From the NCBI RefSeq assembly GCF_003334785.1, contig NZ_QOWV01000008.1: a DNA stretch of 64,000 bases; one strand, 5' to 3'. The position numbers were made by a program, and so were the translations under genes. This DNA comes from Escherichia coli (GTDB lineage Bacteria > Pseudomonadota > Gammaproteobacteria > Enterobacterales > Enterobacteriaceae). This document shows positions 14,125-16,555 of this stretch, in pieces; the stretch's first letter is position 1; each line of letters opens with the position of its first letter. A model generated the notes under the pieces. It worked only from the letters and a program-made list of their open reading frames with translations. It was not told the DNA's origin and ran no database searches.

Positions 14125-15741
14125 ATGCTCAGTCAAATTCAACGCTTTGGCGGCGCGATGTTCACGCCAGTGCTGCTGTTTCCCTTCGCCGGGATTGTGG
14201 TGGGTCTTGCCATCTTGCTGCAAAACCCGATGTTTGTCGGGGAATCACTGACCGATCCGAACAGTTTATTCGCGCAAATCGTACACATTATTGAAGAGGG
14301 CGGTTGGACGGTATTCCGTAATATGCCGCTGATTTTTGCTGTCGGTTTACCCATTGGCCTTGCTAAGCAAGCGCAGGGGCGTGCTTGTCTGGCGGTGATG
14401 GTGAGTTTCCTGACCTGGAACTATTTCATCAACGCGATGGGAATGACCTGGGGAAGCTACTTCGGCGTCGATTTCACTCAGGACGCGGTGGCAGGTAGCG
14501 GTCTGACAATGATGGCCGGGATTAAAACCCTCGATACCAGCATTATCGGCGCAATTATCATTTCCGGCATTGTGACGGCGCTGCATAACCGTCTGTTCGA
14601 TAAAAAACTGCCGGTTTTTCTCGGCATTTTCCAGGGGACGTCTTATGTGGTGATTATCGCCTTCCTGGTGATGATCCCCTGTGCCTGGCTGACGTTGCTC
14701 GGCTGGCCAAAAGTACAAATGGGGATTGAATCTCTGCAAGCGTTCCTGCGTTCGGCGGGTGCACTTGGGGTCTGGGTTTACACCTTCCTCGAACGTATTC
14801 TGATCCCAACCGGTTTACACCACTTCATCTACGGACAGTTTATCTTTGGTCCGGCAGCTGTTGAAGGCGGCATTCAGATGTACTGGGCGCAGCATCTGCA
14901 AGAGTTCAGTTTGAGCGCCGAGCCGCTGAAATCGTTGTTCCCGGAAGGCGGTTTTGCCCTGCACGGTAACTCAAAAATCTTTGGTGCCGTGGGCATTTCT
15001 TTAGCGATGTACTTCACTGCCGCACCGGAAAATCGGGTAAAAGTGGCGGGCTTGCTGATTCCCGCAACCTTAACCGCCATGCTGGTGGGAATTACCGAAC
15101 CGCTGGAATTTACCTTCCTGTTCATTTCACCGTTGCTGTTTGCGGTACACGCCGTGCTGGCGGCCTCAATGTCGACCGTAATGTATCTCTTTGGTGTGGT
15201 GGGCAACATGGGCGGAGGTCTGATTGACCAGGTTTTACCGCAAAACTGGATCCCGATGTTCAGCAACCACGCGGATATGATGCTGACCCAAATCGCCATT
15301 GGGTTGTGCTTTACCCTGCTGTACTTCGTGGTTTTCCGCACACTGATTCTGCAGTTCAACATGTGCACGCCGGGACGTGAAGATGCGGAAGTGAAACTCT
15401 ACTCAAAAGCCGAATACAAAGCCTCGCGAGGCCAAACCACCGCGGCAGAGCCAAAAAAAGAGCTGGATCAGGCTGCCGGTATCCTGCAAGCCCTGGGCGG
15501 GGTCGGCAATATCTCCAGCATTAACAATTGCGCGACGCGTTTACGTATTGCACTGCATGACATGTCACAAACGCTGGATGACGAAGTCTTTAAAAAGCTG
15601 GGAGCGCACGGCGTCTTCCGTAGTGGCGATGCCATTCAGGTGATCATTGGTCTGCATGTATCTCAGCTGCGTGAACAGCTCGATAGCTTAATTAATTCTC
15701 ATCAATCAGCAGAAAATGTTGCCATTACGGAGGCAGTATAA
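14125..15741 (+). CDS. glvC: PTS alpha-glucoside-family EIICB component (glvC-glvB as one continuous ORF)
   Basis: ATG at 14125 with aagagga RBS; IIC membrane domain plus C-terminal IIB motif NNCATRLR; 538 aa. Confidence 0.75.
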
Positions 15742-16555
15742 TGACCAAATTCTCAGTGGTTGTCGCAGGCGGTGGAAGCACCTTTACGCCAGGCATCGTG
15801 TTGATGCTCCTGGCGAATCAGGACCGTTTCCCGCTTCGTGCACTGAAATTTTATGATAACGATGGTGCGCGGCAGGAAGTGATTGCCGAAGCCTGTAAAG
15901 TCATCCTTAAAGAAAAAGCGCCGGACATTGCGTTTAGTTACACCACCGATCCTGAAGTGGCATTCAGCGACGTTGATTTTGTCATGGCGCACATCCGCGT
16001 CGGCAAATACCCGATGCGCGAACTGGATGAAAAAATCCCGCTGCGCCACGGCGTTGTTGGTCAGGAAACTTGCGGACCCGGCGGAATAGCGTACGGCATG
16101 CGTTCCATTGGCGGCGTCCTGGAACTGGTGGATTATATGGAAAAATATTCACCAAATGCCTGGATGCTCAACTACTCCAACCCGGCAGCCATTGTCGCAG
16201 AAGCCACGCGTCGTCTGCGCCCGAATGCGAAAATCCTCAACATCTGTGACATGCCAATCGGTATTGAAAGCCGGATGGCGCAAATTGTTGGGCTGCAAGA
16301 TCGCAAACAGATGCGCGTGCGCTACTACGGCCTGAACCACTGGTGGTCGGCGATATCCCGCAGTTTCAGAAAGGGTTAATGAGTCAGCAAGTGGCGGTGG
16401 AAAAACTGGTCGTGGACGCCTGGGAACAGCGTTCATATCAGCACCTGTGGCAGGCGATTACGTTGTCGAAAACGGTACCGAGCGCCTCGGTCGCCAAAGC
16501 TATTCTGGATGAGTTGCTGGAGGCCAACAAAGCGTACTGGCCAGAGTTACGTTAA
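15741..16555 (+). pseudogene. glvG: GH4 6-phospho-glucosidase fragments (glvG plus C-terminal remnant)
   Basis: 212-aa N-terminal fragment with GGGS Rossmann motif ends prematurely; separate 70-aa piece 16343..16555 resembles a GH4 C-terminus; middle appears missing. Confidence 0.7.

Follow-up and report, generated by a model that had tools for sequence, protein, structure and literature searches.

An uninterrupted EIICB transporter gene beside a glvG gene broken by a 508-bp deletion at the glv locus of Escherichia coli

In a 64,000-nt stretch of Escherichia coli DNA, which is referred to as the window throughout, a full-length gene for a 538-aa alpha-glucoside-type phosphotransferase transporter (EIICB) was found next to a glvG hydrolase gene from which 508 bp are missing. 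Taken as a whole, this arrangement is very probably a decayed glv operon, in which the hydrolase was lost by the 508-bp deletion and the transporter is a leftover. The feature is the E. coli glv locus, with the gene order yidP, glvC-glvB (EIICB) and glvG, and its parts are as follows.

13113-13829, minus strand: yidP, encoding a GntR/HutC-family regulator of 238 aa, divergent from glv (K-12 annotation)
13830-14124, no strand assigned: yidP-glvC intergenic region, the presumed glv promoter/operator (sequence reading)
14125-15741, plus strand: EIICB, 538 aa, K-12 glvC and glvB fused, homologue of Klebsiella AglA and Bacillus subtilis GlvC (ORF, TIGR02005, Pfam and PGAP)
15229-15231, plus strand: EIICB codon 369, CAG (Gln) here and TAG (amber) in K-12, where it splits glvC from glvB (comparison of the window with K-12)
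15529-15531, plus strand: EIICB Cys469 codon (TGC) in the CATRLR motif, the EIIB phosphorylation site (motif position and PF00367)
15741-16379, plus strand: glvG 5′ fragment, 212 aa, made of 200 native GH4 codons (15741-16340), 12 out-of-frame codons and a stop (ORF list and alignment)
16334-16341, plus strand: deletion junction, the one remaining copy of the 8-bp repeat GAACCACT (alignment to intact O157:H7 glvG)
16342-16555, plus strand: glvG 3′ remnant, native residues about 370-440, in a frame that differs from that of the 5′ fragment (frame-2 translation and K-12 b4556)
16552-17445, minus strand: yidL, encoding an AraC-family regulator, convergent, bounding the locus (annotation)

The transporter frame starts with an ATG at 14125 (MLSQIQRF...) and runs for 538 codons to its end at 15741, as given by both the ORF list and the raw sequence. 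An earlier note, made from the DNA letters, had placed the IIC and IIB domains in this single ORF with a CATRLR motif near the C-terminus, and was right on each point: Pfam matched PTS_EIIC (PF02378) at residues 10-346 and PTS_EIIB (PF00367) at residues 453-482, and CATRLR begins at Cys469, the phosphorylatable cysteine. No EIIA domain was matched by Pfam in the 538-aa protein. The NCBIfam model TIGR02005 (alpha-glucoside-specific PTS IIBC) scored 954.7 bits against EIICB, compared with a curated cut-off of 607.3, with residues 2-523 aligned to model positions 1-524 of 524; judged by this sequence match, EIICB can be assigned to the alpha-glucoside-specific PTS type (AglA/GlvC). By analogy with characterized members of this type, the window EIICB would transport and phosphorylate alpha-glucosides via EIIA-Glc (Crr). 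An uninterrupted 538-aa EIICB was likewise annotated by PGAP in all 15 non-K-12 genomes fetched. Strain C10, whose glvG is intact, has exactly the same EIICB protein as the window, and the O157:H7 protein differs from it at a single residue (P238 there, Q238 here). Gln238 (codon 14836-14838) occurs in the window, K-12, E. coli W and strain C10, while Pro is found in most sampled strains, including O157:H7.

The stop codon of EIICB and the ATG of glvG share one base (ATAATG, 15739-15743). To define what the hydrolase gene has lost, we used as reference the intact glvG of E. coli O157:H7 strain Z866, which lies in the same place, spans 1,323 bp and encodes 440 aa annotated as 6-phospho-alpha-glucosidase. 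The window sequence matches this gene over 601 nt from its 5′ end and 222 nt from its 3′ end; the two matches add up to 823 nt on a sequence of 815 nt, which indicates that 508 bp are gone and that the junction lies inside the 8-bp direct repeat GAACCACT. Since 508 bp equal 169 codons plus 1 nt, the reading frame is changed and a stop follows 12 codons on. The deleted part comprises residues 201-369, including the catalytic Tyr. The C-terminus of the GH4 protein is borne by a third ORF (16343-16555, 70 aa), with a GTG start that is purely mechanical. The earlier note had seen a GH4 ORF ending after 212 aa and a separate 70-aa C-terminal piece, and had proposed an internal deletion plus a frame change; the alignment to the intact E. 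coli allele bears this out, the two pieces being not continuous and the downstream one lying in a different frame.

The gene identities given in that note, namely a glvC-glvB fusion (EIICB) with a GH4 glvG downstream of it, also hold, by TIGR02005 for the first and by PDB matches for the second. Intact E. coli GlvG aligned end to end with PDB 6dux, which we take to be Klebsiella AglB, at 912 bits, and with B. subtilis GlvA (1u8x) at 747 bits. NCBIfam gave only sub-threshold matches to GH4 alpha-galactosidase and AglA models for both the intact and the shortened GlvG, and none for the 70-aa remnant; with no NCBIfam model passed, it is the PDB sequence matches that identify GlvG as GH4. Residues 1-200 of the 5′ fragment align with both structures, so that the NAD-binding Rossmann half is kept, together with Cys169, Asp170 and His200 (GlvA Cys171, Asp172 and His202; offset +2), and Tyr263, aligned to GlvA Tyr265, is absent from the fragment. 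In GlvA, Cys171, Asp172 and His202 serve as metal ligands and acid, and Tyr265 as the catalytic base. With its GH4 catalytic and C-terminal domain (about 440 aa) incomplete, the window glvG is, as judged from its sequence, a pseudogene and not a functional member of the family, and it is irreversibly dead.

The 508 bp were probably removed by illegitimate recombination or replication slippage between the 8-bp GAACCACT direct repeats, both copies of which are conserved in all eight intact alleles inspected. The SNP patterns upstream of the deletion are shared between deletion haplotypes and differing intact haplotypes, which fits either one deletion event followed by recombination or recurrence at the conserved 8-bp repeats.

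Upstream of the operon, YidP gave NCBIfam GntR-family matches, every one under the curated cut-offs. From its position and by analogy with Klebsiella aglR, YidP is presumed to repress the glv operon. A perfect 12-bp palindrome, TTTTCGCGAAAA, was noticed by eye in the yidP-glvC intergenic region (13940-13985), flanked by GGTCTAC / GTAGATC half-sites; it could be a candidate HutC/GntR-type operator for YidP.

The window is closely related to K-12, with positions 1-41276 being 99.97% identical to MG1655 at 3.836-3.878 Mb in reverse orientation. The MG1655 order is yidE, yidP, glvC (b3683, 368 aa), glvB (b3682, 161 aa), the glvG pseudogene (b4556, 815 nt), yidL and yidK, and in K-12 PGAP marks the transporter as "internal stop" and the GH4 gene as "frameshifted". 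Within 10990-19274 only two base differences from K-12 were found, one of them at 15229 (C in the window, T in K-12). Codon 369 thus reads CAG here and TAG in K-12, which indicates that the fused IIC-IIB ORF is real and that it goes back to one local difference from K-12. No difference at all was found in 15741-16555, where the deletion junction and the locus match b4556; the glvG lesion is therefore already known as an annotated K-12 pseudogene.

Several other features of the window were recorded in the course of this comparison. At the yidK/yidJ junction (19260-19274), 144 bp are deleted relative to K-12 between two CTGGCGGC copies, with the end of yidK and the start of yidJ gone; yidK runs on out of frame into a 650-aa ORF (17612-19564), and yidJ, a putative sulfatase gene, is left without a start. 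A 120-nt query across this junction matched, at ≥99% identity, at most 79 complete E. coli genomes, including ML35 and FORC 064. In dgoK (2-dehydro-3-deoxygalactonokinase), one base fewer than in MG1655 (3874140) was found around position 3589, not in a long homopolymer, and the gene is split into ORFs of 114 aa and 178 aa (3255-3599 and 3596-4132); the missing base is either a real frameshift or a sequencing error. At the selC tRNA, about 11.8 kb (41277-53073) are absent from MG1655 and are annotated in matching genomes as a P4-like satellite prophage, with an integrase, a primase-helicase, an Icd-like protein and the Psu polarity suppression protein; this element is 100% identical to the one in E. 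coli strain A1, which came from a short-beaked echidna, and is covered to ≥80% in only 10 genomes. Beyond it, at 53074-64000, identity to MG1655 falls from 99.97% to 98.8% (124 mismatches), which suggests a recombination boundary at the selC island.

We then counted the alleles of the locus by BLAST in 5,426 complete E. coli genomes, a collection biased to laboratory and clinical lineages, so that all counts are approximate. The glvCB-glvG stretch was present in 4,280 of them, and the 508-bp segment, which marks a full-length glvG, in 1,653 (about 30%). By subtraction, about 2,627 genomes (about 48%) carry the locus without the segment, and a 70-mer spanning the deletion junction was found at ≥99% identity in 2,642. 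An intact EIICB with a deleted glvG is thus the commonest single state of the locus in E. coli. The exact TAG version of a 61-mer around codon 369 was found in 348 genomes and another allele in 3,841; the four TAG genomes inspected (ER1709, ET12567, BM28 and MC4100) are all K-12 laboratory derivatives. CAG, or at least non-TAG, is therefore the species-wide state of this codon. In about 1,150 genomes (about 21%) the whole yidP-glv module is missing and yidE adjoins yidL. In strain 13P477T, a module-less genome, homology to the window covers about the last 100 bp of yidP, then breaks off and is regained within the 3′ end of yidL, which is shortened; the deletion spans window positions 13217-16584 (relative to L021 1505-1600). 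In this one genome, the yidP remnant and the homology break in yidL indicate a secondary, independent deletion of about 3.4 kb and not an ancestral absence.

The earlier note had called a complete transporter with a dead hydrolase an odd operon state. As a description of the structure this stands, but the oddness does not, because about 48% of complete genomes share it; with the deletion allele being the commonest in E. coli and b4556 annotated, the state is an ordinary one within the species. The importance of the finding in itself is accordingly low: outside K-12 the fused EIICB is the usual allele, which PGAP annotates routinely, and nothing here is new in kind. What is added is the population picture, in which glv exists in three main states, intact, with the 508-bp deletion or wholly deleted, and the K-12 amber is a further step.

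Whether the surviving transporter is under constraint was evaluated with eight natural deletion-bearing and seven further intact-operon genomes, a small sample that was picked by identity rank, includes K-12 on purpose and ignores shared ancestry and recombination. It is possible in principle, but in our judgement unlikely, that EIICB has been selectively kept without GlvG, its phosphorylated substrate being handled by another enzyme, or the protein serving in EIIA-Glc signalling or titration. For such retention speak the uninterrupted 538-aa EIICB in all eight natural deletion strains, on haplotypes that differ at many synonymous sites, and the very high frequency of the deletion allele (about 2,600 genomes). 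Among 18 EIICB sequences, 69 polymorphic sites were found, 8 of them nonsynonymous; private variants of the deletion strains numbered 6 nonsynonymous to 16 synonymous, a ratio below the roughly 3:1 expected if fully neutral, and some purifying selection may thus act on the transporter of these strains. Against it, the intact-operon strains had private variants in a ratio of 1:31, so that the nonsynonymous share is significantly higher in the deletion strains (Fisher p = 0.014, in a small sample with shared ancestry ignored), which hints weakly at relaxed constraint. Most of the private synonymous changes, moreover, come from one divergent haplotype (L013), which was probably imported by recombination. 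The amber in the K-12 transporter and the loss of the entire transporter from about 21% of genomes also weigh against retention, as does the lack of disaccharide growth in MG1655 supplied with the hydrolase alone (PMC5309279), though MG1655 has the amber. Still less probable, by a little, is the stronger claim that EIICB is actively maintained in roughly 2,300 natural GlvG-less genomes and that the 508-bp deletion is an adaptive rewiring and not decay.

Two other readings would keep the hydrolase alive, and both have a negligible probability. For the first, that glvG is really intact and its split comes from faulty sequencing or assembly, no evidence was found, and it hardly agrees with the loss of 508 bp, which is no homopolymer slip; neither chance nor an assembly error explains a junction that recurs, identical, in about 2,600 complete genomes assembled independently (MG1655 among them), and a sequencing artefact was rejected on the ground that thousands of genomes share it. 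It is just as hard to believe that both glvG pieces are made and either come together in an active split enzyme or are linked through recoding. Translational coupling of the 5′ fragment to EIICB through the ATAATG overlap, and its retention of the NAD-binding half, would favour such an enzyme, but 169 residues, among them the one aligned to the catalytic Tyr265 of GlvA, are absent from the DNA, and the remnant lacks a credible start of its own and has gained a stop (Q407*) in three of the eight deletion strains. A split or recoded GlvG was therefore rejected, as 169 residues are not in the DNA.

We thus return to the decayed operon with a leftover transporter as the preferred reading. In the ancestral operon, by analogy with related systems, EIICB would have imported alpha-glucosides with EIIA-Glc as phosphoryl donor, and GlvG would have cleaved the 6-phospho-alpha-glucoside formed. 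With the hydrolase dead, the alpha-glucoside pathway of the window as a whole would be non-functional, and the full-length transporter most likely persists as a leftover, under weak selection or none, that has so far been spared. K-12 has gone one step further in this decay with the amber at codon 369. Were the operon ever induced, uncleaved phospho-alpha-glucosides might accumulate, and such a build-up could favour later loss of the transporter. Taken together, the Q407* stop in the remnant, the whole-module deletions, the K-12 amber and an IS5-family element (ISKpn26) that lies within the glv match of the window's nearest relative point to stepwise loss of a dispensable pathway whose transporter is under relaxed constraint. 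The anatomy of the locus, the signature of the deletion mechanism, the allele frequencies and the family assignments are shown by the data; for the window itself we infer the substrate range, the Crr dependence, the regulation by YidP and the absence of current selection.

Our literature search turned up PMC5309279 and an entry in a table of PMC10305011, but no other functional study of the E. coli locus. In the former, MG1655 did not grow on methyl-alpha-glucoside, isomaltose, maltitol, maltulose or isomaltulose, and the K-12 homologues were termed cryptic or truncated (PMC5309279). The window strain would be expected to show the same no-growth phenotype on alpha-glucosides. In E. coli, B. 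subtilis glvA plus glvC, or Klebsiella aglA plus aglB, gave crr-dependent growth, and one gene of either pair was insufficient, except for methyl-alpha-glucoside (PMC5309279). A practical point for strain engineering is that natural strains with the deletion might regain growth on isomaltose or isomaltulose once supplied with just a 6-phospho-alpha-glucosidase, which does not suffice in K-12.

Compared with known systems, the locus is nearest to that of K-12 MG1655, which has the same neighbours (yidE, yidP, yidL and yidK) and a glvG with the same 508-bp deletion; K-12 carries the transporter as pieces of 368 aa and 161 aa, whereas the window has IIC and IIB in one 538-aa protein. O157:H7 and about 1,650 other E. 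coli have the same locus with a 440-aa GlvG, and PGAP names the two proteins of the intact operon 'PTS sugar transporter subunit IIB' and '6-phospho-alpha-glucosidase'; in the window gene, by contrast, residues 201-369 are missing and the frame is shifted. Klebsiella pneumoniae aglA/aglB and Bacillus subtilis glvC(malP)/glvA(malA) follow the same two-gene logic, an EIIA-Glc-dependent EIICB with a GH4 NAD+/Mn2+ 6-phospho-alpha-glucosidase, but those systems are functional and allow growth on isomaltose, isomaltulose, maltitol and related sugars, whereas the hydrolase of the window is dead. The cryptic bgl, asc and chb/cel systems of E. coli are likewise PTS systems for glycosides that go unused in wild-type strains; they are intact but silent and can be reactivated by mutation, whereas the window glvG has lost 508 bp, which rules out reversion.
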